Shown piece after piece: positions 1 through 31,925 of a DNA stretch of 45,601 nt. Each line of letters starts with the position of its first letter. Position 1 is the first letter of the stretch. The notes beneath the pieces were generated by a model. It did not search any database and was not told the origin of the DNA. It was given only the letters and a program-made list of their open reading frames with translations. This stretch comes from an uncultured Candidatus Saccharibacteria bacterium. Lineage in GTDB: Bacteria > Patescibacteriota > Minisyncoccia > Minisyncoccales > Staskawiczbacteraceae. Location of the stretch: contig CAZMKW010000002.1 in NCBI GenBank assembly GCA_964567205.1, forward strand, positions 1-45,601, given 5' to 3'. The position numbers and the translations under genes were made by a program.

Positions 1-123
1 TATAATGTATTAATTCGTGAATTCTGTATTTTGAAGTTAGGAGTTAGAATAGAATAAAAAATTCAAGATTCGACATTCCAAATTCTATTCAGACTACAGA
101 ATACTAAATTCCGTATTCAATCT

Positions 124-531
124 ATGGAACAATATCCTATACCTCAATTTATTGAACAGGAGGGCAAAATTGCTTTCTTTATTTCTTTTCGACAATTTTT
201 TTATCTTGTAGGAGCCGGCGTTATTTGCTTTTTTTTGTATTGGATTTTACCTCCTATTATTTTCTATTTAGTTGCAATTGTGCTTTTTATTGTTGCTCTG
301 GCTCTTGCCTTTGGAACAGTGGGGGGCACACCGATATTAAATGTAATTTTAGGAGCAATCGGGTTTTCTATGGGAGGTAAAAACTATACATGGAAAAAGA
401 AAGAATCTCCATATCCTTTTAAACCTATAAAAAGAACCCAAATCAAAAAAATAGAACAAGGCCCTGTTTTGCAAGCGCAAACCAGCCAACTAAGAAGAAC
501 CAAAACGCAAGTGGAACTAAAGACTAAATAA
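124..531 (+). CDS. PrgI/VirB3-like small membrane protein (T4SS-associated)
   Basis: 135-aa ORF. N-terminal 'YPIPQFIEQEGKIAFFISFRQFFYL' is followed by two long hydrophobic helices and a basic tail, the layout I associate with PrgI-family proteins preceding VirB4 ATPases in Gram-positive-type T4SS. It lies upstream of VirB4-like ORFs. Confidence 0.5.
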   Translation: MEQYPIPQFIEQEGKIAFFISFRQFFYLVGAGVICFFLYWILPPIIFYLVAIVLFIVALALAFGTVGGTPILNVILGAIGFSMGGKNYTWKKKESPYPFKPIKRTQIKKIEQGPVLQAQTSQLRRTKTQVELKTK

Positions 532-537
532 ACAGCA

Positions 538-1019
538 GGCTACCAATGTACTAATATATTACTAATATACAAATAGGTGACGCAAGAATTTTCTACTACA
601 AAAAACAAGGTTGACTTAATATATCCTGAACTAAGTTATAAAATTATTGGTATTTTATATGATGTTTTAAATGAGTTAGGTTCCGGACATAAAGAAAATT
701 ATTACCAAAAGGCGACATCCGCAGCTCTATTTAAATCTAATATTAGCTTTAAGGAACAGGTTTATTTGCCCATCACATTTAAGGATATAAATATTGGAAA
801 ATACTTTTTAGATTTTTTAATAGATGAAAAAATAGTATTAGAAATAAAGGCAAACGATCACTTTTCTAGAAAAAACATTGGACAAATATTTTCCTATTTA
901 AAAGCCACTAATCTTAAACTTGGAATTTTGGCAAATTTTTCGGGCAATGAAGTAAAATTTAAACGCATTCTTAATATTCGTAATTAGTATATTAGTGATA
1001 TATTAGTAAATTAGTAGCC
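538..1019. mobile_element. Inverted-repeat-flanked GxxExxY gene cassette sitting between two operon genes
   Basis: 33-nt arms at 538-570 (ggctaccaatgtactaatatattactaatatac) and 987-1019 (reverse complement ggctactaatttactaatatatcactaatatac) match at 30/33. The left arm starts 7 nt after the upstream stop; the right arm ends 1 nt before the downstream ATG. Confidence 0.45.
577..987 (+). CDS. GxxExxY-family protein (PD-(D/E)XK nuclease-like fold)
   Basis: 136-aa ORF with GTG start. 'ELSYKIIGILYDVLNELGSGHKENYYQKA' carries the G-x-x-E-x-x-Y signature. 'IDEKIVLEIKA' and 'YLKATNLKLGILANF' match the family core as I remember it. Confidence 0.8.
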   Translation: MTQEFSTTKNKVDLIYPELSYKIIGILYDVLNELGSGHKENYYQKATSAALFKSNISFKEQVYLPITFKDINIGKYFLDFLIDEKIVLEIKANDHFSRKNIGQIFSYLKATNLKLGILANFSGNEVKFKRILNIRN

Positions 1020-1020
1020 T

Positions 1021-1683
1021 ATGGAAAGCGCAACACAAGAATTTTTAGAAATACAGGATATAAGAGAAGGGGTTTTGCTTTTGAAAAATAATTCCATAAG
1101 GGGCGTTTTAATGGTTTCTTCTATAAATTTTGCGTTAAAATCAGAAGAAGAACAAACGGCCGTAGTTTATGCTTTCCAAAACTTTTTAAATTCTTTAGAT
1201 TTTTTCTGCCAGATTGTTATCCAGTCAAGAAAAATAAACATCACTCCATATTTAGATAGCTTAAAAGATTTAGAAGAAAGACAGACTAATACTTTACTAA
1301 GAGAACAAACATCTTCATACAGAGAATTTATAAAAAATATGGTTGTGGGGGACACAATTATGACAAAAAACTTTTATATGGTTATTCCATATAATTTGAT
1401 GGAAATTTTTGGATTGAAAGGTGGGTCAAAACAATTTAATATATTTAAAATGGGAAAACCGAGTGGCGCAAAAAATCAGCCCATGAAAGACGACGAATTC
1501 CAAAGATGCAAAACACAGCTTTGGCAAAGGATGGAATATGTGTCTATGGGTTTAAGAAGATGTGGGTTGGAAGCTGTACCACTAACAACACCAGAACTCA
1601 TAGAGCTTTTTTGGTCTATTCATCATCCAGATCAAGCAGAAATTGGATATTACCCGGAAATTCTTCCTGAACTGCTTAAGTAA
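1021..1683 (+). CDS. N-terminal domain of a ConE/Orf16/TcpF-type VirB4 ATPase, encoded as a separate ORF
   Basis: 220-aa ORF. 'EFLEIQDIREGVLLLKNNSIRGVLMVSSINFALKSEEEQTAVVYAFQNFLNSLDFFCQIVIQSRK' and 'KNFYMVIPY' resemble the first ~190 residues of ~800-aa Gram-positive conjugative VirB4 homologues. There is no NTPase motif of its own. Confidence 0.55.
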   Translation: MESATQEFLEIQDIREGVLLLKNNSIRGVLMVSSINFALKSEEEQTAVVYAFQNFLNSLDFFCQIVIQSRKINITPYLDSLKDLEERQTNTLLREQTSSYREFIKNMVVGDTIMTKNFYMVIPYNLMEIFGLKGGSKQFNIFKMGKPSGAKNQPMKDDEFQRCKTQLWQRMEYVSMGLRRCGLEAVPLTTPELIELFWSIHHPDQAEIGYYPEILPELLK

Positions 1684-1759
1684 TTACGAAACTACTAATT
1701 CGTACGAATATACTAATACGAATTCGTAAATTAGTAAAAATTGGTAAATTAGTAATTTT
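1684..1759. repeat. 76-bp AT-rich palindromic spacer related to the cassette IR arms
   Basis: Contains tactaat (1693-1699, 1711-1717) and attagta (1730-1736, 1748-1754) motifs in opposed orientation. Also has the palindromes attcgtacgaat (1698-1709) and tacgaattcgta (1717-1728), and the pair ttacgaa (1684-1690) / ttcgtaa (1723-1729). Its 3' end 'attggtaaattagtaa' resembles the cassette right arm 'attagtaaattagtag'. Confidence 0.6.
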
Positions 1760-3568
1760 ATGAATTTTTTAGATAATCTTTTAGGGAAAAAACAAGAGAA
1801 CTTGGCGGATGATAAAATTTTCCAAGAGGAGGCTTTTGATGTAAGGGATATTATAGCGCCTCCATACATTGGAGTATTGCAAGACCACATAAAACTGGGC
1901 GAAAGACTTGCGAAATCTTTCTTTGTTTTTTCTTATCCAAGGTATTTAAACACCGGCTGGTTTTCGCCTGTTATAGACTTGAATACGCCAATGGATATTT
2001 CGTTTTTCATACATCCTGTCAGCTCAGAATTAATTTTAAAAAAATTAAGAAAAAAAATTACAGAAGTTTCTTCAGAAGTTTTAGAAAGACAAGAAAAAGG
2101 ATTGATTAGGGATCCCGCTTTAGAAACCGCATATCGCGATATTGAAACTCTTAGAGATAATTTAATGACAGCCCAAGAAAAAATGTTTAGGTTTGGATTG
2201 TATATCACAATTTATGAAAATTCTGAAAAAGAATTAAGAGACACAGAACTCACGTTAAGATCAATTTTTGAATCAAGATTAATTTATATAAAACCGGCTC
2301 TGTTTAAACAAAAAGAAGGGTTTATTTCTTGTAGTCCTTACGGAATGGATTTAATAGAAGTCCATACGCCAATGGACACGGGGCCCCTATCAACATGTTT
2401 CCCGTTTATTTCTTTTGATTTAAGTTCCAATGAAGGAATTTTATACGGCACTAATAGGCACAACAATTCTTTGGTTTTATTTGATAGGTTTAGTTTGGAA
2501 AACGCAAACATGGTAGTTTTTGCAAAATCCGGTTCCGGAAAATCTTATGCTATAAAACTGGAAATTTTAAGATATTTAATGCAGGGAGTGGATTGTATTA
2601 TTATTGATCCTGAAAACGAATATGAATTTTTAGCCGATGCTGTTGGCGGGGCATTTTTAAAAATTTCTTTAACTTCGCCAAACCATGTTAACCCTTTTGA
2701 TTTACCACTGCCAGGGCCAGATGATAATCCCGAAGATATTTTAAGATCTAACGTTATAAACTTAGTTGGACTTTTAAGAATTATGCTTGGAGGGTTGTCA
2801 CCAGAAGAAGATAGCGTATTAGATGAGGCGCTGACAGAAACTTATGCTGTAAGGGATATTACCGCCCAGTCAGACCCTAAAACTTGGGCAAACAACACGC
2901 CGTTAATGTCTGATTTCCAAGAAGTTTTAGAGAGTATGTCAGGAACAGAATCTTTGGTAAAACGTATTAAAAAATTTACCAAGGGAACTTTTTCTGATTT
3001 CTTTAACCAGCAGTCTAATATTTCTATTGAAAAAAGTTTTGTTGTTTTTGGAATAAGGGATATGGAAGAATCTTTAAGACCAATCGCATTGTATATTATT
3101 ATGCGATATGTTTGGAATATGGTCAGATCTAAATTGAAAAAAAGAATTTTGGTTATTGATGAAGCGTGGTGGCTAATGCAATCAGATGACGGAGCTTCTT
3201 TTCTTTTTGGATTAGTGAAAAGGGGTAGAAAATATTGGCTGGGCGTTACAACTATTACACAGGACGTCGCCGACTTTATGCGGTCTGATTATGGAAGGGC
3301 AATTATCACAAACTCATCTTTACAACTTTTAATGAAGCAATCAACGGCAGATATTGATGTTGTGCAAAAAACTTTTAATTTAACCGAACAAGAAAAATAT
3401 TTATTAATCGAAGCGGCGGTCGGAGAAGGATTATTTTTTGCAGGCAGAAAGCACGTATATTTATCAGTTGTGGCAAGCCAGACAGAAAACCAGATAATAA
3501 CAACAAATCCTCAAGAGGTTCTGCAAAACAGAGAAGCAAAAAGAATTTTAGACTCCGCCCAAAATTAA
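1760..3568 (+). CDS. virB4: VirB4-like T4SS ATPase (C-terminal two thirds of a ConE/Orf16-type protein)
   Basis: 602-aa ORF. Has 'DIIAPPYIGV...YPRYLNTGWFSPVIDLNTPMDISFFIHP', Walker A 'FAKSGSGKSYAIK' and Walker B 'ILVIDEAWWLM', typical of VirB4/TrbE/ConE family ATPases. Confidence 0.85.
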   Translation: MNFLDNLLGKKQENLADDKIFQEEAFDVRDIIAPPYIGVLQDHIKLGERLAKSFFVFSYPRYLNTGWFSPVIDLNTPMDISFFIHPVSSELILKKLRKKITEVSSEVLERQEKGLIRDPALETAYRDIETLRDNLMTAQEKMFRFGLYITIYENSEKELRDTELTLRSIFESRLIYIKPALFKQKEGFISCSPYGMDLIEVHTPMDTGPLSTCFPFISFDLSSNEGILYGTNRHNNSLVLFDRFSLENANMVVFAKSGSGKSYAIKLEILRYLMQGVDCIIIDPENEYEFLADAVGGAFLKISLTSPNHVNPFDLPLPGPDDNPEDILRSNVINLVGLLRIMLGGLSPEEDSVLDEALTETYAVRDITAQSDPKTWANNTPLMSDFQEVLESMSGTESLVKRIKKFTKGTFSDFFNQQSNISIEKSFVVFGIRDMEESLRPIALYIIMRYVWNMVRSKLKKRILVIDEAWWLMQSDDGASFLFGLVKRGRKYWLGVTTITQDVADFMRSDYGRAIITNSSLQLLMKQSTADIDVVQKTFNLTEQEKYLLIEAAVGEGLFFAGRKHVYLSVVASQTENQIITTNPQEVLQNREAKRILDSAQN

Positions 3569-3579
3569 TCCTGTTAAAT

Positions 3580-3602
3580 AATTTTCGTCAAAACCGAAAA
3601 TT
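3580..3602 (+). other. Intercistronic hairpin between virB4-like gene and pilin-like genes
   Basis: aattttcg (3580-3587) pairs perfectly with cgaaaatt (3595-3602), loop tcaaaac. No T-run follows, so it is not a classical terminator; possibly a processing or stability element. Confidence 0.3.
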
Positions 3603-3637
3603 AAAATTTGGAATATTTTATTTAACTGGATAAAAAG

Positions 3638-6600
3638 ATGGCCAAAAAAACCTGGAGAACAATTCTTTTTTTGGGAGCGATTTTTAGCTTTTTTTTAGGA
3701 CACCCATTGGGTCGCGGTTTTGTTTTAGCATTTGAGGTTCACTATCCAACTATAGATATTCTTGGACAAACTTTTTCCATTAACGACACTTCTTCCTTGG
3801 GAGAATATATTTGTTATTTTTTTGGGTTAGGCACAAACCTGGCCGTTTTTATATCCGTTATAATTATAGCTTTTGGGGGAATTCTTTATCTTGTTTCCTA
3901 CGGAAGGGGAAAATTCACAAGCGATGCTGTAGATTGGATAAAAGGTGGAATTTTGGGTCTTTTAATAGTTATTTCTGCATCATTAATAGCCTACACAATT
4001 AATCCAAATTTAACCGATTGTAAGGTTGGTATTTTATCATTAATTAATATTGGCTATTCTAATACATACCCCACCACAGAACCAAGTGCTCCCTGGAGTA
4101 CATATCAAGAAATTCCTATTGGAAAATTAACTGAAAATCTTTTGACAAGAACAATGGATTGTTATGGCTTTGACCCGGAGGGAAATCCCGTTGCCGGAGA
4201 AAGAATAACAACCGAAGACTGTGGATTTTTTGGGGGTTGTCCCGAAGGACAAACTTGCGATAAAAAAACCAGCAAATGTTATATATCGGGTCCAACATAT
4301 TTAAATCATGACCGAGCAGACTGTTTAATAGAGTTAATAGACGGTGCGCAAAAAAAGGGACAGATGATCGCGGGGCTATCAGATAAAATAACAGGGTTAA
4401 TGAATACCTGTTCTTGTAGAATTAAAGATGCTCAGGGCAACGATACCAGTGAGAGTAAGTGCGACCCTGTTTGCGACCCATTAAACGGAGGGTGTGGACT
4501 TTTTTCAACGGGAAACCCCGCTGGAATAAACCAAGACTGTACTGGCTCCTGTAAAGGAGACTGTATAGGGGGAGCCTGCAAACAACCGCCAAACACAACA
4601 GACTGCTGTCCCCCGGGAGTTAAAAATCAAATTGAACACGGAGCAATTTCTTTATCTGTTGATGTAGGATCTGTTAATGGAGATAGTGGATCTTGTACAA
4701 CTCCAAAAAAAGATTATAAAGGATTAGATGAATTTAGATGCCCAAACCCAAATGACGGCGATATTAAAACTCCGTGCTCTGGCATACCGGGATGGGTTGA
4801 AGAAAAGATCCAAGTGGATAATAAAACAATTATTACAATAAACCAAAAAAAATGGGAACTATTAAATTCCATACAACAACTGACATATTTTAGAGAAAAA
4901 ACAGAAGAACTAAAACAAAGAATCCAAGCAGATAAAAATGAATTAGACAAGGCAAAATCTGCGCTAAATAACTGTTATATGGCAGTTCCGTATGTTGACC
5001 TTGTTAAAACTTACCAAACCACAAATCAGAAGGTTCGGCTTATCTCTATTACAAAAACATTTTCTGATCCGGAAACCAACGCGCCAATTGACGCTTCAAA
5101 ATATTGCGCGGGATTTAATTATAATAATTCCAGTTGCCTTAAAAAATGCAACGACCTCTGCCCAGATACAAGCAACCAGGCCATCGGGTTTTATCGGCAA
5201 GAAACAGGCTCGTGCGCAAAAAACGATACGGCATGTTTAAATAAGGCCATTGAAAAAGCTTACCAGGAAAGACCTTGTCCATATGCTCCAAGCTCGTCTG
5301 ATACTAAAACATTCGCAGGATGTATAACTGCGTGCGAGGGGGATCAGACAAATAGCTGCGGAAAAAAATATTTGTCGTGCTCTAACGAATATAATTTTTG
5401 TGAAGACCAGAGCACAAATAATTCACAATGTGTTATAGATAACTCTGATGTTTGTTTATTTGGCGGACAATCATTTCAAAATTGCGCGAACCAAACCACC
5501 GACCAGGGCAATACCAATTTTTGTATAGACAATGCTTACAAATGTAAAAATGGCTCTAATGAATATGCGGGATATATAGATTGTATTAAGCCAAACGCAA
5601 CATCTACCACAACTGATCCTTTAACTAAGGCATTAAAAACCTTAGGGTTTGGACAAGACGATATAGATGTTTTATCTCAAATTTTAAACCCAGTTAATGT
5701 TTTAGACCTAACCAAAAATCTTAATGTCTTATCTATTATCCTGCGGAAAGCAGGAGTGCCACAGAATGATATCGACGCGCTCAAAGGTGGGAGCATTTCT
5801 CCCGCTTTGACTAAGGGCTTAAAATCATTAGGACTAACACAGGGTGATATTGACACTTTGTCCCAAAATTTAAACCCAGTTAATGTTTTAGACCCAACTA
5901 AAAACCTAACTAATGTTTTAACTAACATCCTGCGGGCAACAGGAGTGCCACAAAACGACATCGACGCACTTATAGGCGGTGCTAATCCTGTTAATATTTT
6001 AAACCGCATATTAGGGATCACGGGATCTGCGAATATTGATTGTTCACAAGACTATTCGGCTTCATTTTTATTTGAGCATCCGGAATGCCAAAAATGCACA
6101 AGCCCATATATTTCACTGCCTAATGGTGGTGGGAAGTGCCAGGACGTATATCCTGAAACCGCAAAGTGCCCAACTTCTTCTAATTGTCCTGCATGCCCGT
6201 GCGACCAGATAGACGCCACTCTCAAATCTTATGTTCCGGTTGAAAGTAGCCAAAAGGTTGCAGGCGAAGATATTTATTACACAACGGAACAGCCAATTTT
6301 AGCCCACCAGATAGTTGGACCCCAATGCAATAAATATTCCCGCAACGATGATCCTTTAACTTTTTATTGCCAAAACAATTGGTGGTTAGATCCAAATAGG
6401 GAAATAAGCGGAACAACACCAATAGGAACAGAAAAAGTTTGTCCTAAAACAAGAGAAATACCTGTTGGTCAAACCGTTGATAATGCTGAAAATTGGGCCG
6501 TCGGTTTAATAAACAGCGCGAATAAAATGCAAAATGACATACAGGACATAATTGGCGAGATGTATATAATAGGTAGGGCAAAAGATCCAGAAAATCCAAT

Positions 6601-7168
6601 AAAAGATTACTGTAAATGCAATGCAAAATATGTAAGTGAGGAACCAATTTGTGAAACAGACTGCCAATATTGGCAAGTAATCGTGCCACCAGACACGTTC
6701 TGTGGCTGTGGTCTTGTAAAATGTAAAGGAAGCCCGTGTGATCAAATTACAGATTATTTGGCACAGCTTTGGGATTATTATAGAAAATTCAAGCTCGATT
6801 TTACTAGTTTTTATATAAATGCCCTAAAAGAACCCAGAAGCGATATTATGAAGGAGTTAACTTATTCTAGGCAGACAACAAGCAGTTGTAGCTTAATATC
6901 CAATAATTCCGATTCTCAAAACAGGTTATTAAGTTGTACAAGGGTTGAAGACGAATTAATTTCTCCTATTACCACCGGCAAAATAACAATTAACGGCGAA
7001 ACCGCAAACTCTTATTGTTATGGAAAAGAAGTAGGTAAACTTTTTAGTGTGGATCCGTCAAGTAGCCAATACTTATCGCAACAAAACCAACCACCCTCAA
7101 TAGATAACTGGTTTTGTTGCCAAGAATATCAAAAAACTTCCGGTGCGCAGGGCGCCGCCGCTCAATAA
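3638..7168 (+). CDS. Giant secreted cysteine-rich protein with N-terminal VirB2/TrbC-topology (T4SS-pilin-like) module
   Basis: 1176-aa ORF with a signal-like N-terminus. Two hydrophobic helices ('YICYFFGLGTNLAVFISVIIIAFGGILYLV' and 'GGILGLLIVISASLIAYTINPNL') are separated by a short polar loop. About 1050 aa follow with dense Cys motifs (e.g. 'CDPVCDP', 'CTGSCKGDCIGGACKQ', 'CCPPG'), a coiled-coil stretch and internal repeats. Confidence 0.7.
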   Translation: MAKKTWRTILFLGAIFSFFLGHPLGRGFVLAFEVHYPTIDILGQTFSINDTSSLGEYICYFFGLGTNLAVFISVIIIAFGGILYLVSYGRGKFTSDAVDWIKGGILGLLIVISASLIAYTINPNLTDCKVGILSLINIGYSNTYPTTEPSAPWSTYQEIPIGKLTENLLTRTMDCYGFDPEGNPVAGERITTEDCGFFGGCPEGQTCDKKTSKCYISGPTYLNHDRADCLIELIDGAQKKGQMIAGLSDKITGLMNTCSCRIKDAQGNDTSESKCDPVCDPLNGGCGLFSTGNPAGINQDCTGSCKGDCIGGACKQPPNTTDCCPPGVKNQIEHGAISLSVDVGSVNGDSGSCTTPKKDYKGLDEFRCPNPNDGDIKTPCSGIPGWVEEKIQVDNKTIITINQKKWELLNSIQQLTYFREKTEELKQRIQADKNELDKAKSALNNCYMAVPYVDLVKTYQTTNQKVRLISITKTFSDPETNAPIDASKYCAGFNYNNSSCLKKCNDLCPDTSNQAIGFYRQETGSCAKNDTACLNKAIEKAYQERPCPYAPSSSDTKTFAGCITACEGDQTNSCGKKYLSCSNEYNFCEDQSTNNSQCVIDNSDVCLFGGQSFQNCANQTTDQGNTNFCIDNAYKCKNGSNEYAGYIDCIKPNATSTTTDPLTKALKTLGFGQDDIDVLSQILNPVNVLDLTKNLNVLSIILRKAGVPQNDIDALKGGSISPALTKGLKSLGLTQGDIDTLSQNLNPVNVLDPTKNLTNVLTNILRATGVPQNDIDALIGGANPVNILNRILGITGSANIDCSQDYSASFLFEHPECQKCTSPYISLPNGGGKCQDVYPETAKCPTSSNCPACPCDQIDATLKSYVPVESSQKVAGEDIYYTTEQPILAHQIVGPQCNKYSRNDDPLTFYCQNNWWLDPNREISGTTPIGTEKVCPKTREIPVGQTVDNAENWAVGLINSANKMQNDIQDIIGEMYIIGRAKDPENPIKDYCKCNAKYVSEEPICETDCQYWQVIVPPDTFCGCGLVKCKGSPCDQITDYLAQLWDYYRKFKLDFTSFYINALKEPRSDIMKELTYSRQTTSSCSLISNNSDSQNRLLSCTRVEDELISPITTGKITINGETANSYCYGKEVGKLFSVDPSSSQYLSQQNQPPSIDNWFCCQEYQKTSGAQGAAAQ
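5621..5980 (+). repeat. Tandem ~58-aa (about 174-186 nt) intragenic repeat, two copies
   Basis: 'LTKALKTLGFGQDDIDVLSQILNPVNVLDLTKNLNVLSIILRKAGVPQNDIDALKGG' versus 'LTKGLKSLGLTQGDIDTLSQNLNPVNVLDPTKNLTNVLTNILRATGVPQNDIDALIGG'. The second copy starts at 5807. Confidence 0.9.
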
Positions 7169-7206
7169 TATTTGATAATTATAAAATAATAAAATTAATA
7201 AAAAAT

Positions 7207-8598
7207 ATGAAAATTATAATTAGTATAAAAAATAAGTTTTTATTATTTTTAAGTTTTTTAATTGTCTTTATTTTTTCCAGTATTGCTTTCGCTTCCGCTT
7301 TAGAGGTTCCTCTACCTGGACTGAAAAATAATCCTTCTCTTTCAGAATATGTGGTATATTTATTTGGATTTATTATTTCTATCGCGGGAGTCATAGCCTT
7401 AATATCTTTTGTTGTGGGAGCAATCGGATTAATAAATCCTAACGTTGAGGCCCATGGCGATGCTAAAGACCGGATGATAGGAGCTGTTTTGGGTTTAGTA
7501 CTCACGGCTTGCGCCTTTTTAATTTTACAAACAATTAATCCTAATCTTGTATCGCCAACCTTAACACCTCTACCCGGCGTAGCGGGAGTTTTTTATACTA
7601 ATGGAAGTGAGAAAGCCGCCGTGTCTGACCAGGTTGGAGATGTAGCAAAAAGAGGAGATGATTTAATAAAAAATGGATATAATAAATTACTTCTTGATTG
7701 CACTAATTCTAATGGATCGAACGACCCGGTGCTTTTAGTCTGGGAATTTCCCAAGGCAGGTTTTCAAGGAAATGACAGTAATTATAGTGGAGCCAGTGTT
7801 AAAAGAATAGGTTGTGGAGAAAGCGAAGACATTTCCAGCCTTGGTTCTTTTAAGTGGGCATTTGAAACCCCCGGAGTTTATTATTATTTGGGCGCGAATT
7901 GTGGCGGGCTGGGTTCTAGTGTGGTCACCAGCTCCCAAAACAGCATAGAGGCCCCGTTTAGGGGGAATATAAAATCAGTTAAAATTGTTAATAACCCAGC
8001 CAAAGACCTTTATTACGGCGTTATTTTTCACGCAAATGCCGGACTTGAAAATGGCGGTGCGTGTAGTCTCCCAATAACAAAGAATGATTGTAACCCAATC
8101 GGCATAAATAACTTAAATCCCTTTGCCGCTGATATTTTTTTAATGAACAAAACCCCGGCTACTTCCGGAACCGGAGTAATTTTTTACAGCGAAGCTTATG
8201 GTTGGAACACGGGCATTAGCGCCGGAAAAAAAATATTAACAAACACAGATATAGCGGCGCGCAATGGAAGTTATGAGACGTTTGCGTCAGAGTTATCTTT
8301 TGATTATACAAACATTAATAGGCCGGAGGCATATAAACATAAATGTAACCCTAACAAGCCTTCCGACGCCGAAGGTAATAAAGAGGGGGTTGATTGCTCC
8401 CAAAATGGTTGTGAAGCATTCGAAGATTGTATGGGATCTATAAAAATAAACGGGAGATATTTAATTAAGATTACTTGGATGGATAAAAGTTCTATTTGGG
8501 GCCCTTGTCAAACATTTACTCAGGATGTCGAAGAGTTAGATGCTAAACAAATTGGAGGCAGTAAAGCATATTTTGTTGATGTAATTGCTACAAACTAA
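7207..8598 (+). CDS. Secreted T4SS-pilin-like module fused to Cys-containing C-terminal domain (paralog 1)
   Basis: 463 aa from the ATG at 7207; the track start 7114 overlaps the previous gene. Has a signal peptide, 'ALEVPLPGL', two hydrophobic helices flanking 'NPNVEAHGDAKDRM', and 'LQTINPNLV'. The C-terminal domain has motifs shared with the next ORF. Confidence 0.75.
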   Translation: MKIIISIKNKFLLFLSFLIVFIFSSIAFASALEVPLPGLKNNPSLSEYVVYLFGFIISIAGVIALISFVVGAIGLINPNVEAHGDAKDRMIGAVLGLVLTACAFLILQTINPNLVSPTLTPLPGVAGVFYTNGSEKAAVSDQVGDVAKRGDDLIKNGYNKLLLDCTNSNGSNDPVLLVWEFPKAGFQGNDSNYSGASVKRIGCGESEDISSLGSFKWAFETPGVYYYLGANCGGLGSSVVTSSQNSIEAPFRGNIKSVKIVNNPAKDLYYGVIFHANAGLENGGACSLPITKNDCNPIGINNLNPFAADIFLMNKTPATSGTGVIFYSEAYGWNTGISAGKKILTNTDIAARNGSYETFASELSFDYTNINRPEAYKHKCNPNKPSDAEGNKEGVDCSQNGCEAFEDCMGSIKINGRYLIKITWMDKSSIWGPCQTFTQDVEELDAKQIGGSKAYFVDVIATN

Positions 8599-8604
8599 CA
8601 ATTA

Positions 8605-9954
8605 ATGGCAATGAAAAATAAGTTTTTATTATCTTTAGTTTTTTTTATCGCTTTCCTTTTTCTAGGGGCTAATTTTGTTTTTGCATTAGAGGCCAAGTAT
8701 CCTGATATACCCGGCCTGCCAAGCTTAAATGGAGGCAGTCTTAATATCAGCTCATATATCGGATATTTTTTTGGGTTTTTAATTTATGTAGGAGGAGTGT
8801 TGGCCTTAATCTCTTTTGTTGTGGGAGCAATTGGGCTAATAAGCCCCAATATAGAATCCCATAACGACGCCAAAGACCGAATGAAAAACGCCCTTTTGGG
8901 ATTAATATTAACGGCTTCCTCTTTTTTAATTTTGCAGACAATTAATCCTACTTTTGTGGCGCCGACTATGACGTCATTACCGGGCGTTGCAGGAATTTTT
9001 TATACCAATGGAAGTGAAAAAAAACCGTGCCCGTCAGAAAATCCAGATACATCAACTATTCCGCAGGGATTTAACAATATCCAATACATCTGCTCAGGAA
9101 GCGACCCTGCGTTATTAATTTGGATGTTCCCGGATAAAAACTTTGAAAACTACCAAAAGGCCAGCGTAAAAAGAATAACTTGCAATAATACTATTCCAAT
9201 TGGCGAAGGATCTTTTCAATTGGCGTTTGAAACTCCCGGTATTTACTATTGCTTAGGAGGGTGCGGAGGCGACAATATGTGTTCAGGATATATGTCTAAT
9301 GCGATCAGCTCCTCACAAGATGTTATAGACGCGCGGTTTAGCGGTAAAATAGGAGCCGTAAGGGTTGTTAACGACCCGGAAAACAACACTTATTATGAGG
9401 CTATTTTTCACCAGCAGACAGGACTAGATAATGTTGGCAAATGTTCTTATCCCATACCTGCGGAAAATAATAATCAAAAAATCGTGTGTGAGGGTCTTGA
9501 TTTTCCCAACGCTTCCGCCGTAAATATTTTTATGTGGAATAAAGGACCCGCATCAACCAGTGGTGGTGGCGTTACTTTTTATAGCGAGGCTTATGGGGCC
9601 AGTATTGGAACGCAAAACAGAGGAGAGGGTTTTTGCGCCATTAATAATGATAAAATAATCGGCCTCTTTTCCGTAAAATCCGACAAACTTGTTTTTAATA
9701 GCGGTAATTCTGTTTATAGTTGCGGTTATTCCGAGAAAACCATGTCACAATATAAAGATCTTTATAAAACCTTCAGCGAAAGACACGGATCAATAAATAT
9801 TAAGGGGAATTATTTGGTTGGCTTGTTCAGCAGCCCGAACACGGGTGGCGCATACTGCCAAGTTTTCGAAGGTGATGCCAATAATTTAAACATGGAACCG
9901 TTTATTGCATCGGGACAATCCATAGAAAGTATTTATATTCTTCCTAAAAAATAG
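8605..9954 (+). CDS. Secreted T4SS-pilin-like module fused to Cys-containing C-terminal domain (paralog 2)
   Basis: 449 aa. Clearly paralogous to 7207..8598: 'LPGVAGIFYTNGSEK', 'ASVKRITC', 'FETPGIYYCLG', 'YYEAIFH', 'GVTFYSEAYG', 'GSINIKGNYLVGL', 'CQVF'. Confidence 0.75.
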   Translation: MAMKNKFLLSLVFFIAFLFLGANFVFALEAKYPDIPGLPSLNGGSLNISSYIGYFFGFLIYVGGVLALISFVVGAIGLISPNIESHNDAKDRMKNALLGLILTASSFLILQTINPTFVAPTMTSLPGVAGIFYTNGSEKKPCPSENPDTSTIPQGFNNIQYICSGSDPALLIWMFPDKNFENYQKASVKRITCNNTIPIGEGSFQLAFETPGIYYCLGGCGGDNMCSGYMSNAISSSQDVIDARFSGKIGAVRVVNDPENNTYYEAIFHQQTGLDNVGKCSYPIPAENNNQKIVCEGLDFPNASAVNIFMWNKGPASTSGGGVTFYSEAYGASIGTQNRGEGFCAINNDKIIGLFSVKSDKLVFNSGNSVYSCGYSEKTMSQYKDLYKTFSERHGSINIKGNYLVGLFSSPNTGGAYCQVFEGDANNLNMEPFIASGQSIESIYILPKK

Positions 9955-9985
9955 ACTCCTGTTATAATCTAAAAAAACAAAGTTG

Positions 9986-11140
9986 ATGCCCAAAAAATAT
10001 ATAAAATTTTTATTTGCCATTATTTTTTCTACCATTCTTTTATGTGGTATTTTTTCCTATTTTTTAGTAAACAAAAGTTTGGCGGCGGGACTAGAAGTAA
10101 AAACCTATCCCACAATAGCCGGAAAAACCGTAACAGCCGAGACAAAGCTGCCAGATTTTATGGTTTATCTATTTAACGCCGGGATGATTTTAGGGTTTGG
10201 CTCTGTTATTATTTCCCTGGCTTTGGCTGGAGTAATGTATATATTGTCTCCCATAGACCCCGGCGCCGAATTTTTATCTCGCGCCAAAGACCGTGTCTCT
10301 GGAGCAATATCGGGTTTGCTTGTTTTAATTTTGACATATCTGATTATAACCACTATAAATCCCCAACTTAGTGTTTTTAAACCGAGTGACCCACTAGAAA
10401 CCCCTCAAATATCACAAACAGAAAAAACAGCCCCGGGCGTATATTTGTATAAAGACTCCGGATGCTCTAATAAAGACGCCGATGTGTATGCATCAAATGT
10501 CGGCGACTTGGGCTCATTGAGAAAAGATGTAAATTCCGTAAAAATAGTCCCAGATTCAGATAATGACACTTATTATTTTTCTATCTTATATGAAACTATA
10601 AATTTTCAAGGAAAGTGCCAATATATTAACCCGGATAATAGTTGCCAGAGAACAAGCCTTTCTGCTTCGTCGGCATCTATTTATAAATATAATTTTGACC
10701 CCAACGGCGATGGAGTGTATTTTTACCGCAAATCATACTTTAACCAAGAGGGCGGATATTTATTTATTCCAAACGATGATATTGGAGACCTAAATAGAAG
10801 GGGCCCATATGCAAATAAATTAGACCAATTACAGTTTATAGGTGTGCCAGAAGAGGAACAAGATTGTATAAAATATGACGATAAGGGGAAGTGTGCCGAA
10901 AGGGCTATCCCAACTCTCGCTGGAGAAAATATTTCCTCAATAAAAATACGCGGGGATTATCTTGTTTTACTCACCTATGCCGGACCAAAAGAATCGTGTG
11001 AAGACGTTGTAAACACCTCGTGCCAAGAATTTCCTACACCAGATGATATAAATAAAACCGGACCACAACAAATAAAATGGGAAGAAATTAGAAACTATAA
11101 CGGAGTAATTCCCAATTGTTTAACTATTATCCCAATATAA
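9986..11140 (+). CDS. Secreted T4SS-pilin-like module fused to Cys-containing C-terminal domain (divergent paralog 3)
   Basis: 384 aa from the ATG at 9986. Same N-terminal plan ('GLEVKTYPTIAGK', helix, 'DPGAEFLSRAKDRV', helix, 'TTINPQL'). The C-terminal domain has 'APGVYLYKDSGC', 'NSVKIVPDSDNDTYYFSILY', 'GDGVYFYRKSYF', 'SSIKIRGDYLVLL', 'CQEF'. Confidence 0.7.
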   Translation: MPKKYIKFLFAIIFSTILLCGIFSYFLVNKSLAAGLEVKTYPTIAGKTVTAETKLPDFMVYLFNAGMILGFGSVIISLALAGVMYILSPIDPGAEFLSRAKDRVSGAISGLLVLILTYLIITTINPQLSVFKPSDPLETPQISQTEKTAPGVYLYKDSGCSNKDADVYASNVGDLGSLRKDVNSVKIVPDSDNDTYYFSILYETINFQGKCQYINPDNSCQRTSLSASSASIYKYNFDPNGDGVYFYRKSYFNQEGGYLFIPNDDIGDLNRRGPYANKLDQLQFIGVPEEEQDCIKYDDKGKCAERAIPTLAGENISSIKIRGDYLVLLTYAGPKESCEDVVNTSCQEFPTPDDINKTGPQQIKWEEIRNYNGVIPNCLTIIPI

Positions 11141-11160
11141 TTTTTAGCAATAAACAATAA

Positions 11161-11196
11161 AAAACCGCCCTGAGTTTATCGAAGGACGGTTTTTTA
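11161..11196 (+). terminator. Rho-independent terminator after the pilin-like gene array
   Basis: Stem ccgccct (11165-11171) / aggacgg (11183-11189, one mismatch), flanked by an A-run and a T-run (11190-11195). Confidence 0.6.
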
Positions 11197-11219
11197 TTGT
11201 TTGATAATTATTTAGCCTT

Positions 11220-11349
11220 CCCCGTTAGAAGTCTTGAGTAAAAATTATTATTTCAATAATAATTTTTACATACTCATTCCAATGTTTTTTATTATTTGTA
11301 ATTTTGACTTGCTAAAAATTTTATAGAACTATCCAGACTTCTAACGGGG
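11220..11349. repeat. 130-nt palindromic intergenic element with 15-bp perfect terminal inverted repeats
   Basis: ccccgttagaagtct (11220-11234) is the exact reverse complement of agacttctaacgggg (11335-11349). There is an internal perfect 14-bp hairpin gtaaaaattattat/ataataatttttac (11238-11269). The right arm overlaps the jag stop codon (11341-11343). Confidence 0.7.
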
Positions 11350-11847
11350 CTTTATAATAATATGCCTATCTATCCCATATCCTTGGCTTTCTGTCAGAAC
11401 GTCTGTTCTTTCAGATAATTCTGCGTGTATAATTCTCCTCTCGTAAGATGACATCGGCGGAAGCGCCTTTTCCCCTTTATTTAAGGCCACCTGATCTGCC
11501 AACTCTCTGGCTGTGCTTTTTAAATATTCTGTTTTTTGCTTTTTATAATCATTAATGTCTAAATTTAAATAAAAAACCCCTTGCAATCTCCTGCTTAAAA
11601 TGGCCCTTAAAAGACGCTGAATTTCAAAAAGAGTTTGGCCTTGCTGGCCGATCAAAATTTGGGGCTCGTCTAGTTTTAAACTTAAGTCGACTATTTCTAT
11701 TTTCTCTTCGGACACATCCTGTCCTCCTCCGAGTTTTTTTTTGGCAGAGGTCAAATCAACACTCATATTAGAGGTTGGTATTGTCATCTTCTCAAAAAAT
11801 TCCTCTGCTATCTGTTTAATTTTATTTATTTTTTCGGATTCTGACAT
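11341..11847 (-). CDS. jag: Jag/KhpB-like KH + R3H RNA-binding protein
   Basis: 168 aa. KH-like 'LIGQQGQTLFEIQRLL' and R3H 'PMSSYERRIIHAEL'. Conserved position downstream of yidC. Confidence 0.85.
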   Translation of the reverse strand: MSESEKINKIKQIAEEFFEKMTIPTSNMSVDLTSAKKKLGGGQDVSEEKIEIVDLSLKLDEPQILIGQQGQTLFEIQRLLRAILSRRLQGVFYLNLDINDYKKQKTEYLKSTARELADQVALNKGEKALPPMSSYERRIIHAELSERTDVLTESQGYGIDRHIIIKPR

Positions 11848-11851
11848 ATCT

Positions 11852-12595
11852 CTAATTATTTACCGACTCTGACTTATTGTTCTTTTTAAAAATTAAATAC
11901 TGCTGAATTATAGAAAATAATCCGCTGGTTGTCCAGTATAATCCTAAAGCGGATGGTAAACCTATTAATATAATAATTGTAAAAACAGGAAAAAAGTAAA
12001 GTGTCTGCTTTTGCATCATTTGAGAAAAGTCAGCCCCCTTGCCCTGCACACTACTCTTTGAATTGGTTTGGGGAATTAGCATTTTTGTCTGGAAATATTG
12101 TACTAGACCAGCCAAAATAGCCAACACCAGATTTGGTTTAGATAAGTCTATTATATGCAAAAATAAAGGATTTATTTGCCCGGGATTAAAAATAAATCCA
12201 TATAGGGCGCTTAATTCTTGAGGATTAACTCCACCCCAAAAAACCCTGTAAAGGGCAATTAATATAGGAATTTGTATAAGGCCTAAAAGAAGTCCTGAAA
12301 AGGGATTTATTTTTTCTGTTTTATATAAATTTAAAATCTCTTTCGCCTGCTTTTCTTTGTCGTCCTTGTGTTTTTTTTGCAACTCTTGAATCTTTGGTTG
12401 CAACTCTTGAAGATTCTTTTGGGATTTGACGGCTTTGGCTGAAAATGGAAAAAGTATAACCCTAATTATTATAGTTAAAAGTATTATAGCTATACCAAAG
12501 TCGTGACCGGGCACATAATTATATAACAATATAAGAAAGTTAAATAATGGCTGGTATAGTGTAATATAGAAAAAACTTACTATGGATTCAAACAT
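11852..12595 (-). CDS. yidC: YidC/Oxa1-family membrane protein insertase (short form)
   Basis: 247 aa, multi-TM, with lysine-rich loop 'QELQKKHKDDKEKQAKEILNLYK' and 'INPFSG'. Lies in rnpA-yidC-jag synteny. Confidence 0.9.
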   Translation of the reverse strand: MFESIVSFFYITLYQPLFNFLILLYNYVPGHDFGIAIILLTIIIRVILFPFSAKAVKSQKNLQELQPKIQELQKKHKDDKEKQAKEILNLYKTEKINPFSGLLLGLIQIPILIALYRVFWGGVNPQELSALYGFIFNPGQINPLFLHIIDLSKPNLVLAILAGLVQYFQTKMLIPQTNSKSSVQGKGADFSQMMQKQTLYFFPVFTIIILIGLPSALGLYWTTSGLFSIIQQYLIFKKNNKSESVNN

Positions 12596-12602
12596 TTTAC
12601 TT

Positions 12603-12962
12603 TTAATTTTTAATTAATAACCCTGTCTTAATTAGGGCGCTTTTTAGAGCCTCTTTTATTATGGAAAAGTCTTTTTTCTCTATGCCAGATAAAGCAATTA
12701 AAATTAAGTCTGTCCCTAATTTTATATTCTTTGTTTCGGCTCCGACCGCCTCGACCAGCCTCCTTCTAATTTTATTCCTTATTGTGGCCTTTTTTGAGAC
12801 TTTTAGGCTGACTATAAATCCAAATCGATTTATCCCTAGATTATTTTTTACTGTTTTTAAAATAAAAAGATTATTTTTAAAGCTTTGGGACGGCTTTACG
12901 GCCCCCCTAAAAATAACTTCGAAGTCTTTCTTTTTTTTAATTCTATTTTTTTTTGGAAGCAT
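12603..12962 (-). CDS. rnpA: Ribonuclease P protein component
   Basis: 119-aa basic protein 'MLPKKNRIKKKKDFEVIF...' located between rpmH and yidC. Confidence 0.85.
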   Translation of the reverse strand: MLPKKNRIKKKKDFEVIFRGAVKPSQSFKNNLFILKTVKNNLGINRFGFIVSLKVSKKATIRNKIRRRLVEAVGAETKNIKLGTDLILIALSGIEKKDFSIIKEALKSALIKTGLLIKN

Positions 12963-13104: not shown

Positions 13105-13434
13105 TGTATGTATTTTTTAATTAAGTATAATATTAATTAGTATAGTTTAAAAAATCGGAAATTACAAGGCGCCGTTGTTTTTATTCTGGTTCTAATATTT
13201 TACAACATTTTAAAAAATGTTATAAAATATTTATTGTGCGTCTCCACATAGACGGACCGCACAAGTTATACACAGTTTAATAACAGCTCTCTTCGTTTTG
13301 TTTCTATTTGACAAAGCCCCAATAAAAGAGAAAAATATACTTATTAGAAACTCTTTCTTAAACTGCGCACAAAATTACAACAATTAATTACTTGGTCGAT
13401 AAAAAATAAACTTTAACACCTCTCGCTTCAAATT
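13105..13434. promoter_or_regulatory. rpmH-dnaA divergent intergenic region with DnaA-box-like 9-mers (possible oriC part / dnaA promoter)
   Basis: ttatacaca at 13266-13274 has one mismatch to TTATCCACA. gtctccaca lies around 13250-13258 (two mismatches). There is an AT-rich palindrome aacattttaaaaaatgtt. Confidence 0.45.
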
Positions 13435-14814
13435 ATGGATAATCTCGAGCTTTGGCAGTCGGTCTTAGCGCAAATGCAGTTTCATATATCTAAGGCCAAT
13501 TTTGCTACCTGGTTTCAAAACACTGAAATTATTTCCAAAGACAATGAAAAGATAATAATTTCAGTTCCAAATGCGTTTTCCAAGGAATGGTTAAGTAATA
13601 AATATAATAAACTAATCTTAAAAACCCTACACGATATAGATGACTCTATAAAGGATTTAGATTTTATTATAAAACCCCAATCTTCAAGAACCACCCCTGA
13701 TATAACCGGTCACACGGGTGGGCGTCCGGGAACGCCCGAGAGTGAAAAACAGGAAGACACTCAATTAAAATTTGAAGAGTTTAAAATAAACAAAGAAACA
13801 AACCTCAATCCACGATATACTTTTAATAGTTTTGTGGTTGGGTCATTTAATGAGTTGGCCCATGCGGCCGCCCTAGCCGTAGCCGACAACCCGGGGTTCA
13901 CATATAATCCATTATTTATTTACGGGGGTACTGGACTGGGTAAAACACACTTGATACAGGCTATTGGAAATAAAATAAATGACGAAACAAAAAAGAAAAA
14001 AGTAAAATATATCTCTTCAGAAAAATTTGTTTCGGGTATTGTTTCTGCTATTAGAACAAACAGTATGGAGGCTTTTAAAGCAAGCTTAGCGCCTATAGAT
14101 GTTTTAATTCTAGATGATATACAATTTATTGCCGGTAAAAACAAAAGTCAGGAGGAGTTTTTTCATGTTTTTAATTCTTTATACGAAAAAAATAAACAAA
14201 TAATTCTTTCTTCTGATAGACCACCAAACGCTATTGCCGAGCTAGAAGAAAGGCTAAGATCTAGGTTTGAGGGTGGCATGATCGCAGACGTTAGTTTGCC
14301 AGACTATGAAACAAGGCTGGTAATTTTAAAAACTAAACTGCAAGAAAAAAACATAGACGTGCCTGAAGATATTTTAGATTATATCGCCACTAATGTTAAA
14401 AAAAACATAAGAGAATTGGAGGGCGCCTTAAATAAAATATTAATTTACAGTAAAATTAACCAAGAGCTTAATATAGAAACCGCTAAAAAACTACTTAAGG
14501 GTTTTATTTTTTCTCCTTTTGATGTGGCAAATTATAAAAAAATAATAGAAACTGTGGCTAAATTCTACAACTTAGAGGAAAAAAACCTGTTTGACCCCAC
14601 CAGGCGCAAAGAAATTGTAAGGCCCAGGCAAGTCGCAATGTTTTTATTAAGAAGAGAATTAAAATATTCTTTCCCAGCTATAGCAAGAAAATTTGGGGGT
14701 AAAGATCACACAACCGCTATTTACGCATATAAAAAAATATTACAAGAAAACGAAGAAAATAATAAATTAACCGAGGAATTAAATTTAATAAAACAGAGGA
14801 TATATAGTGGATAA
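13435..14814 (+). CDS. dnaA: Chromosomal replication initiator DnaA
   Basis: 459 aa. Walker A 'GGTGLGKTHL', 'LILDDIQF', and a C-terminal DNA-binding domain 'RPRQVAMFLLRREL...GGKDHTTAIYAYKKI'. Confidence 0.95.
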   Translation: MDNLELWQSVLAQMQFHISKANFATWFQNTEIISKDNEKIIISVPNAFSKEWLSNKYNKLILKTLHDIDDSIKDLDFIIKPQSSRTTPDITGHTGGRPGTPESEKQEDTQLKFEEFKINKETNLNPRYTFNSFVVGSFNELAHAAALAVADNPGFTYNPLFIYGGTGLGKTHLIQAIGNKINDETKKKKVKYISSEKFVSGIVSAIRTNSMEAFKASLAPIDVLILDDIQFIAGKNKSQEEFFHVFNSLYEKNKQIILSSDRPPNAIAELEERLRSRFEGGMIADVSLPDYETRLVILKTKLQEKNIDVPEDILDYIATNVKKNIRELEGALNKILIYSKINQELNIETAKKLLKGFIFSPFDVANYKKIIETVAKFYNLEEKNLFDPTRRKEIVRPRQVAMFLLRRELKYSFPAIARKFGGKDHTTAIYAYKKILQENEENNKLTEELNLIKQRIYSG

Positions 14815-15043
14815 ATAAAGAGAATATGTGGTGAATAAATAGTGTTAAAAAGGATTATAATTTTAACAATAAAAACATACATTATAAAATATATTACTTA
14901 TTATATTTCTCTATCCACATTTTTTTCACAAAAAACTTTAAGAACAAATAAAAACATCTACACTTAGTTTTTTATAAAAAATAGTAAAAAATAAAATACA
15001 TAATAATAATAAGTTTATTTAATTAAAGAATTAATTAATAATT
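14815..15043. promoter_or_regulatory. Candidate oriC: very AT-rich dnaA-dnaN spacer with DnaA-box-like sites
   Basis: 229-bp spacer. ctatccaca at 14911-14919 has one mismatch to TTATCCACA; tgtggtgaa at 14827-14835 has two mismatches to TGTGGATAA. Long A/T tracts could serve as an unwinding element. Confidence 0.5.
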
Positions 15044-29944: not shown

Positions 29945-30116
29945 AATTTTTTATGATAATGAAATAGTATCATATAATGTCTCATCTTGCAATAGTCTAA
30001 CCCTGTGTTATATTGTAAGAATCAGTTTTTTACTGTTTCCGGACATTGATAAATATACGGTGTGTGCCGTATAAAAACACAAACAACCAAAGATTCACTC
30101 ATAGAAAGGGAATGTC

Positions 30117-31793: not shown

Positions 31794-31841
31794 TGCCACT
31801 GTGACGCCGTTAATCGGTACAAGTATTTCCTAAGTTCATGG

Positions 31842-31868
31842 GCCAGCCCGAAAAGCTGGCTTTTTTTT
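31842..31868 (+). terminator. Rho-independent terminator after the radical SAM gene
   Basis: gccagc-ccgaaaa-gctggc followed by T8. Confidence 0.8.
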
Positions 31869-31925
31869 GACTGCGTTTTTTATTAGTGGTAAAATTAAAT
31901 AAATTAATATTTATTTCTTAAAAAT

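Follow-up and report, generated by a model that had tools for sequence, protein, structure and literature searches.

A chromosomally fixed type IV secretion locus of Candidatus Staskawiczbacteria that may assemble pilin modules fused to large predicted ectodomains

What could be built by a type IV secretion system (T4SS) that sits among core genes next to dnaA, and in which the motor genes are followed by four proteins that each join a pilin-like hairpin to a large domain? The question is raised by positions 124-11140, on the + strand, of a stretch of 45,601 nucleotides (nt) of contig CAZMKW010000002.1, hereafter the window. This block consists of eight co-directional open reading frames (ORFs) separated by spacers of 6-76 nt, and we read it, at a probability of roughly 70%, as a chromosomally fixed, origin-proximal, non-conjugative T4SS of Candidatus Staskawiczbacteria (Paceibacteria) that assembles the hairpins into a surface structure. 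An earlier interpretation made from the sequence letters without database searches (the sequence-only reading) had listed ORFs that were all present on the + strand, but its description overlooked the GxxExxY ORF at 577-987 between PrgI and TrsD. The eight ORFs, with lengths in amino acids (aa), are as follows.

124..531, + strand: PrgI/VirB3-like protein, 135 aa (PF12666, 30.4 bits)
577..987, + strand: GxxExxY / PD-(D/E)XK protein, 136 aa (TIGR04256, E = 2e-31)
1021..1683, + strand: TrsD-like protein, 220 aa (NF041427, E = 1.5e-5)
1760..3568, + strand: VirB4, 602 aa (NF045971, 357 bits)
3638..7168, + strand: pilin-module protein, 1176 aa (module profile, 87 bits)
7207..8598, + strand: pilin-module protein, 463 aa (module profile, 155 bits)
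8605..9954, + strand: pilin-module protein, 449 aa (module profile, 169 bits)
9983/9986..11140, + strand: pilin-module protein, 385/384 aa (module profile, 68 bits)

The 463-aa protein starts at ATG 7207 in the JGI and ENA gene calls rather than at TTG 7114, and the 385-aa protein would have 384 aa if started at ATG 9986.

The energy and membrane core of the system was recognized by profile searches. The PrgI identity supposed for ORF 124-531 was confirmed, PF12666 being matched above its cut-off (E = 5.6e-7, 30.4 bits vs 27), and the protein has two hydrophobic segments with hydropathy peaks at aa 16-34 and 45-63. VirB4 is of the monoderm/FATA type, with a match to conju_CD1110 (NF045971) above the cut-off (E = 1.6e-106, 357 bits vs 325, profile positions 163-732) and 54-94% identity to the VirB4 of 80 Patescibacterial species; it also matches P-loop_TraG (E = 2.6e-29), and Walker A (GSGKS) and Walker B (VIDEAW) motifs were read by eye in its translation. 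The first ~160 residues of a full-length monoderm VirB4 are missing from this protein. With orthologues from Candidatus Staskawiczbacteria metagenome-assembled genomes it shares 81-94% identity, by which the organism is identified. TrsD, which is soluble and carries the precomputed Pfam label PF26593 TraC-like in the source database, matches NF041427 (E = 1.5e-5) and positions 108-232 of VirB4_plasma NF045975 (E = 3e-9). The TraC_F_IV profile PF11130 is shared out between the two proteins (positions 14-175 in TrsD, 261-370 in VirB4), and in the NCBIfam models of full-length monoderm VirB4 the first ~80-230 positions correspond to TrsD and the rest to the 602-aa protein. Judged from these profile matches, TrsD corresponds to the first half of the N-terminal domain of VirB4, encoded as a protein of its own. 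The split VirB4 noticed from the letters is thus real, with the profile divided between two ORFs that are separate genes in 76 of the 80 species-representative genomes with related loci (L-numbered) that served as our comparative set.

The four proteins encoded after VirB4 share an N-terminal module of about 130 residues (34-39% identity in the alignment) with the invariant residues E33, P37, Y60, G81 and D99 and a T-I-N-P motif that ends helix 2, and in each of them the hydropathy profile peaks at a signal peptide and at two transmembrane segments (TM1 and TM2). Among the window proteins, PF18895 T4SS_pilin scored 24.5 bits (463-aa protein, E = 2.9e-5), 22.3 bits (449-aa protein) and 13 bits against a cut-off of 26.6, and the 385-aa protein gave no direct Pfam match, PF18895 included. 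At the family level the assignment to PF18895 is nevertheless firm on profile evidence. Forty-five of 69 homologues of the 449-aa protein match PF18895 (best E = 5e-9), the N-module profile of the 449-aa family recognizes the 1176-aa and 385-aa proteins (87 and 68 bits, respectively), and PF18895 scores 46-96 bits on proteins among those closest to the four-module profile. The module profile is matched by ~15,700 cluster representatives at 50% identity. NF045849, the model for a pilin-like protein of Mycoplasma integrative conjugative elements (ICEs), is matched by 49 of the 69 members of the 449-aa family (best E = 1e-9). What had been proposed as four pilin-module fusions therefore stands as regards the signal peptide, the hairpin, the 255-1045-aa cysteine (Cys)-rich ectodomain and PF18895 at the family level, while the Pfam scores of the four proteins themselves are sub-threshold. 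The suggested kinship with TrbC/VirB2 did not survive the profile check, in which PF04956 TrbC reached E = 0.042 on the 463-aa protein and 3.5, neither of them significant. Filing the modules under PF04956 (E = 0.04-3.5) was rejected because no link to solved or classical pilins was found, either in the PDB or by hhalign (0.6%).

The C-terminal domains are predicted to lie outside the cell, because a predicted cleaved signal peptide is followed by two membrane helices, and the 9-65 Cys per protein, many of them invariant across homologues, are consistent with extracellular ectodomains. The 1176-aa protein, with 65 Cys, comprises the module (aa 1-131, nt 3638-4030), a low-confidence linker (aa 132-147) and a 1045-aa Cys-rich ectodomain; its AlphaFold2 (AF2) model has a predicted local distance difference test score (pLDDT) of 79.7 and a predicted template modelling score (pTM) of 0.75, with helices at 54-89 and 95-121. 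A Foldseek search with this model against PDB and BFVD turned up no structural neighbour (best E = 0.46), a whole-chain search of a multidomain model being insensitive. Its family numbers at least 135 homologue clusters, mostly from Staskawiczbacteria and a few of them named "pilin" by NCBI, has dozens of invariant Cys, and is invariably encoded by the first gene after VirB4 in those Staskawiczbacteria loci that have it. Two variable insertion points occur in the family, filled by Peptidase_M23 segments above the Pfam cut-off in some relatives, by a matrixin-like segment in one and by long helical segments in others. In the window protein the second insertion point is occupied by a Cys-free tandem repeat of 2 x ~62 aa (aa 673-800, nt 5654-6037), predicted to be helical at low pLDDT. 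The idea of an M23 peptidase within the 1176-aa protein itself was rejected; it has no M23 Pfam match and no HxH motif, and the M23 segments are inserts in some relatives only.

The other three proteins form a second type. The ectodomain profile of the 449-aa protein matches the 463-aa and 385-aa proteins and not the 1176-aa protein. The 463-aa protein (11 Cys) divides into a module at aa 1-122 and an ectodomain at aa 123-463 (ectodomain profile, 355 bits), and the 385-aa protein (9 Cys) into a module at about aa 17-130 and an ectodomain matched over aa 148-364 (68 bits). For the 449-aa protein, AF2 (mean pLDDT 88, ~95 in the ectodomain) predicts a signal helix at 2-21, two 31-residue helices at 48-78 and 83-113, a flexible linker at 114-126 and an all-beta ectodomain at 127-448. 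Foldseek placed gamma/beta-crystallins and Protein S at the top for this ectodomain (best E = 1.7e-4, probability 1.0; template modelling (TM) score 0.56, normalized to the target), and when the whole 449-aa family profile was run against PDB sequences, only chance Ig-like matches came back. On this moderate match between a model and known structures, the ectodomains of the 463-, 449- and 385-aa proteins may be called beta/gamma-crystallin-like.

A classical small subunit of ~70-120 aa was found nowhere at the locus. The window proteins have 385-1176 aa, the window together with its 8.2-kb upstream flank contains exactly four pilin-module ORFs and no small pilin, and the 119 pilin-module ORFs of related loci range from 237 to 2095 aa (median 495, none below 200 aa). 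Three short hits of 121-129 aa were considered as stand-alone small pilins and rejected, ending as they do within a few residues of TINP; two slightly longer short hits stop in the middle of the ectodomain, and all five are therefore read as contig-end fragments. Fusion of every module to a large ectodomain appears to be the rule in this Paceibacteria clade.

Does the genomic setting fit a secretion system that stays in the chromosome? An identical VirB4 was found on six metagenome contigs, one of which (L001) reaches 8.2 kb upstream of the window and carries, in order, a comM-like gene, a LysM-Peptidase_M23 gene (1090-2055, - strand), ksgA, a methyltransferase gene, a gene for a 600-aa polytopic membrane protein (4424-6226, ~2.0-3.8 kb upstream of window position 1), a gene for a 175-aa protein and an SPFH/Band-7 gene (6838-8079, - strand), the last being a conserved upstream neighbour of the T4SS block. 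Downstream of the operon lie the convergent jag (11341-11847), yidC and rnpA (jag-yidC-rnpA, 11341-12962), dnaA at 13435 and dnaN, in agreement with the position among core genes near the origin that had been proposed. The recurring order is [comM]-LysM_M23-ksgA-polytopic protein-[..]-PrgI-TrsD-VirB4-(1-4 pilin-module genes)-jag-yidC-rnpA-dnaA, and among the 80 loci we counted VirB4 in 77, TrsD in 76, PrgI in 70 (directly upstream of TrsD-VirB4 in each case), pilin-module ORFs in 64, VirB6-like genes in 54, jag in 54, yidC in 54, rnpA in 52, dnaA in 41 and comM-like genes in 17. The T4SS block is conserved across Paceibacteria. The sequence-only reading had seen no VirB6 or VirB1 homologue within the window, and candidate counterparts of both lie just upstream of it. 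In the polytopic family, PF04610 TrbL is matched by five of 44 members (best E = 1.8e-8; the L001 member itself has no Pfam match), which makes this protein, encoded ~2 kb outside the window, a TrbL/VirB6-like candidate by family profile, and the LysM-Peptidase_M23 protein is a possible stand-in for VirB1.

The homology of VirB4, PrgI and TrsD to monoderm conjugation proteins would also be expected if the locus were the mating-pair-formation module of a DNA-transferring ICE. However, as the sequence-only reading had stated for the window, no relaxase, VirD4-type coupling protein or integrase is encoded there, and inspection of the flank extends this to relaxases, coupling proteins and integrases/recombinases within 8.2 kb upstream and 34 kb downstream; dozens of species have the block fixed at one site, with ksgA on one side and jag-yidC-rnpA-dnaA on the other, its VirB4 is as conserved as DnaA, and in a survey of Patescibacterial T4SS relaxases lay near virB4 in just 15 genomes (Quinonero-Coronel et al. 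2025, PMC12102498). With no conjugation genes nearby and the same chromosomal site across species, we rejected the ICE as very improbable, and the earlier verdict that this is not a conventional conjugative element was upheld.

Relatives of the module show what else it can be joined to. Some carry it fused to SLT lytic-transglycosylase or Peptidase_M23 segments, and among the metagenomic relatives P0215, P0217, P0222, P0216, P0218, P0248 and P0272 some have 2-4 tandem T4SS_pilin hairpins per polypeptide, three of these chained forms ending in an SLT (VirB1-type) domain (E = 1e-19 to 4e-28). No description of chained pilins or of pilin-VirB1 fusions was found in the Patescibacterial T4SS literature searched. 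Relatives in which it is joined to SLT or M23 hydrolases, or in which 2-4 hairpins are chained, show that the module serves generally to carry functions directed at the wall or the surface. The same relatives, together with ectodomains that far exceed any known polymerizing T4SS pilin in size and window modules that remain under the Pfam cut-off, suit the view that the hairpin only anchors adhesins or wall enzymes, with VirB4, TrsD and PrgI as co-regulated neighbours engaged in other work such as effector export. Such plain surface anchors are rather unlikely to be the explanation, because the module is a distinct, conserved family, marked by invariant residues, and not a generic hydrophobic anchor, because it adjoins VirB4 in 64 of the 80 genomes and, where displaced, adjoins the VirB6-like gene, and because in Southlakia epibionticum the small homologous pilins and the T4SS are both essential (Wang et al. 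2023, PMC10633639).

Sequence divergence, measured by component against the 12 closest species, separates two sets of parts. Identity is 81-94% for VirB4, 85-91% for DnaA, 72-86% for TrsD and 60-85% for PrgI, and 45-76% for the housekeeping neighbours, 36-70% for the 1176-aa protein, 37-53% for the 449-aa type and 31-40% for the VirB6-like protein, so that the pilin-module and VirB6-like proteins diverge much faster than VirB4. This pattern fits what would be expected if the fast-diverging parts were surface-exposed and under pressure. Taken with the big extracellular domains, the much faster evolution than that of the ATPase points to a role at the surface or wall of the host cell and not in DNA conjugation. 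For Patescibacterial T4SS at large, function was called unknown in a 2025 review (PMC12857230) and the role "completely unknown" in a 2024 perspective (PMC11665869). The one species tested nevertheless requires the system.

How might such proteins be assembled? A rough picture can be drawn from well-studied machines. In classical systems VirB4 extracts VirB2 from the membrane and assembly takes place on VirB6, and in T4SS pili of solved structure the C-terminus of the pilin is found on the outside, where each subunit has ~700 square angstroms. By analogy with this VirB4-driven extraction, the four proteins would be inserted in the membrane with both ends outside and with a disulfide-bonded ectodomain, and VirB4, tethered by PrgI and TrsD at the VirB6-like platform, would pull the hairpins from the membrane for assembly at the surface into a pilus or into a short stalk that crosses the wall. 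The ectodomains would face the exterior, because the pilin C-terminus points outward in solved pili, and in decorating it could make contact with the host cell surface. Of the four, the large 1176-aa protein would more probably be a minor, tip or base component and the three crystallin-type paralogues the repeated subunits; given ~700 square angstroms per subunit, the three crystallin-like domains would, on a rough estimate, fit only as radial "bristles". Filament assembly of the fused proteins is inferred by this analogy, and the head-displaying filament suggested by the sequence-only reading is plausible.

Several observations weigh against the assembly of these hairpins by a T4SS. The modules in the window score below the Pfam PF18895 cut-off; the four-module profile, run against PDB sequences, matched no solved pilin, and hhalign against eight plasmid Agrobacterium-type VirB2/TrbC sequences gave a probability of 0.6%. 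The VirB6 assignment stands on five of the 44 family members, and no VirB8-like or coupling protein was identified at the locus. The crystallin match is moderate and comes without a Pfam crystallin profile match. By rough estimate, a domain of 320-1045 aa for every ~100-aa hairpin would be crowded on a five-start T4SS pilus, and the 2-4 hairpins found in single polypeptides of relatives suit a membrane platform at least as well as a filament subunit.

A different purpose for the same structure would be import. In that case the machine would work inward, like archaeal Ced or Helicobacter pylori ComB, as a conduit for DNA or nutrients, sending to the host a tube for the uptake of nucleic acids or metabolites, which the ectodomains would only dock in place; concerning as it does the purpose of the structure, this alternative is compatible with the assembly mechanism proposed above. 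The F pilus is ~8.7 nm wide, to which a tube of 8.6 nm would come close. Such a tube, bridging parasite and host, has been seen by cryo-electron tomography in another Patescibacterium (PMC11880426) and is a candidate for what T4SS of this kind build, although it was not assigned there to a T4SS or to any other machinery. The T4SS has been named as a candidate route of nucleotide acquisition in the same 2024 perspective (PMC11665869), a comM-like gene is conserved upstream in 17 of the 80 loci, and the lack of a relaxase or coupling protein in the window and the 8.2 kb upstream would suit import as well. The C-terminal region of VirB4 weakly matches the archaeal proteins CedB (E = 9e-14) and CedD (E = 1.6e-4), but these matches reflect generic VirB4-family similarity, far under the cut-offs of 700 and 600 bits, and no CedA-like or ComB-specific parts turned up, no search having been aimed at those partners. 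The window, moreover, already has ComEA and a PilB-type ATPase for competence. We consider import unlikely.

Returning to a T4SS that assembles its hairpins at the surface, a more specific form of this reading can be offered, tentatively and with the odds against it, namely that Paceibacteria have a T4SS without a small pilin, in which VirB4 polymerizes hairpin-ectodomain fusions into a decorated conjugative-type pilus or stalk on a monoderm cell, with fast-evolving heads that set host specificity and breach the host wall, crystallin-like at this locus and M23 or SLT hydrolases in relatives. If true, this would be the first T4SS filament whose subunits are large and multidomain, and it would offer a concrete way into the question of how non-Saccharibacterial bacteria of the candidate phyla radiation attach to and feed on their hosts. 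Whatever their assembly, the "pilins" in a large uncultured part of the phylum are in effect carriers of big extracellular domains, whether crystallin-like, a Cys-rich scaffold with no structural neighbour or, in relatives, peptidoglycan hydrolases.

Two further features belong to the operon, one within it and one at its end.

537..1020, + strand: GxxExxY cassette with a bracketing 38-nt inverted repeat (arms 537-574 / 983-1020, 89% complementary)
11152..11202, no strand assigned: likely bidirectional terminator hairpin, flanked by A- and T-runs, 12 nt past the last stop codon

The ORF in the cassette matches PF13366 (E = 3e-30) in addition to TIGR04256, and a related "empty" hairpin of similar sequence lies in the TrsD-VirB4 spacer (1684-1704 / 1717-1737). 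Of the 80 related loci, 78 lack the gene at the PrgI-TrsD position; L020 has it there, and L025 has it in the TrsD-VirB4 spacer. Its appearance is that of a small mobile element inserting into intergenic hairpins, and it is probably not a functional part of the T4SS. At the other end, an inverted-repeat search found arms at 11152-11171 and 11183-11202 that are 95% complementary and form a 20-nt stem with an 11-nt loop, which likely closes the operon as a bidirectional terminator. A consensus scan of positions 1-11400 for promoters and terminators showed no enrichment relative to shuffles, and an Rfam scan of the whole window returned no family above threshold. Between this terminator and the 3' end of jag there is also an 18-nt inverted repeat (11220-11237 / 11332-11349, 94% complementary), inside which lies a perfect 15-nt palindrome pair (11238-11252 / 11255-11269) with no Rfam match.

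The remainder of the window is housekeeping, with genes for PBP1, RuvABC-related proteins, a PilB-type ATPase, ComEA with a lamin-tail domain, Fpg, UvrB, a Mur ligase and others. The separate competence/type IV pilus machinery that had been pointed out from the sequence was verified as PilB/T2SSE at 22927-24249 (E = 3e-113) and the ComEA-lamin-tail protein at 20289-21299; the ComEA-like protein, which has HHH motifs, and PilB are encoded on the - strand among ruvB and ruvC/yebC. DnaA boxes with one mismatch number 18 across the window against 12.6 expected, which is not significant, and the origin position was therefore taken from gene context. Six of these boxes fall close together at 13266-15215, near dnaA and the spacer between dnaA and dnaN, consistent with an origin there. 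The GC content is 0.44-0.46 at 30001-32000, a region covering a B12-binding radical-SAM gene (30117-31793), compared with ~0.30-0.40 in the other bins, and the ORF at 31926-33335 encodes a highly charged, E/K-rich protein of 469 aa with no Pfam match, in a stretch with an AT skew of 0.36. Within the comparative set, L007, L012, L014, L016, L017 and many others bear the title "uncultured Candidatus Saccharibacteria bacterium"; with 60-94% identity to Staskawiczbacteria in VirB4 and a T4SS locus of the Paceibacteria type, they appear to carry it as a placeholder or by misassignment.

To which known systems, then, is the locus related? To the microbial beta/gamma-crystallins (Myxococcus Protein S, nitrollin and the Flavobacterium/Clostridium domains) the 449-aa ectodomain comes near by Foldseek (E = 1.7e-4 to 9e-3) and, by eye, it has strands such as "NISSIKIRG" that recall the Greek-key signature, whereas its family has six invariant Cys and gives no sequence-profile match. 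With the classical VirB2/TrbC pilins (Agrobacterium VirB2, F TraA; PF04956) the modules share the signal peptide, the two hydrophobic helices and the short polar loop, both termini outside (predicted topology for the modules) and genes adjoining virB3/virB4; the classical pilins, however, have ~70-120 aa without an extra domain, and no significant sequence link connects them to the modules.

The T4SS of Mycoplasma, of the MPF-FATA (mating-pair formation) class, is part of a conjugative ICE. To its Mbov_0397-family VirB4 (NF045975) the VirB4 of the window is matched at E = 4.6e-84, TrsD matches the N-terminal region of the same model, and the 49 of 69 modules noted above match the ~80-aa model of its Mbov_0395-family pilin-like protein (NF045849). 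In contrast to the present locus, Mycoplasma encodes VirB4 as a single polypeptide (~894 profile positions) along with a small pilin-like protein, and all scores in this comparison stay below the equivalog cut-offs. Because these modules match NF045849 and VirB4 strongly matches the ICE model NF045975, a monoderm origin of the pilin module is plausible on sequence similarity. The pilin module, having a counterpart in Mycoplasma ICEs, need not be a Gram-negative loan, and with VirB2 null in the profile-profile comparison, the hybrid of Gram-positive and Gram-negative parts first proposed is not required. Co-option of the pilin from Gram-negative systems was left open in the survey of Patescibacterial T4SS because MPF-FATA "lacks" pilins (PMC12102498).

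The closest likeness is to the T4SS of Patescibacteria themselves. In the survey, VirB4 falls in a clade related to MPF-FATA, TrsD and PrgI/VirB3 adjoin virB4, VirB2-like genes detected by PF18895 often form arrays of 2-11, and the Paceibacteria locus, in a dataset that includes Staskawiczbacteria genomes, lies near dnaA, dnaN, rnpA, ksgA and rpmH (PMC12102498); in Southlakia epibionticum the cluster SEML1_0006-0019, pilin array included, is essential by transposon sequencing (PMC10633639). The architecture, which the sequence-only reading had taken to be uncharacterized, was thus already known as a PrgI-TrsD-VirB4-pilin array near dnaA/rnpA. The locus studied here and these systems have in common the order PrgI, TrsD-like, VirB4 with a VirB6/TrbL-like protein (a candidate in the present case) nearby, an adjacent array of PF18895 pilin modules, no relaxase or coupling protein at the locus, a chromosomal position near dnaA/rnpA, and Peptidase/LysM proteins in place of VirB1 (PMC12102498, PMC10633639). 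They differ in the pilins, since in Southlakia the three whose gene sizes are given in a supplementary table measure 126-138 aa, and two members of the array match PF04956, whereas all 119 pilin-module ORFs of the related Paceibacteria loci have 237-2095 aa. No mention of pilin-ectodomain fusions was found in the Patescibacterial T4SS literature searched. Collectively, the locus is a member of the described Patescibacteria T4SS, and its variant part, at a site with no small pilin, is the fusion of pilin modules to ectodomains.

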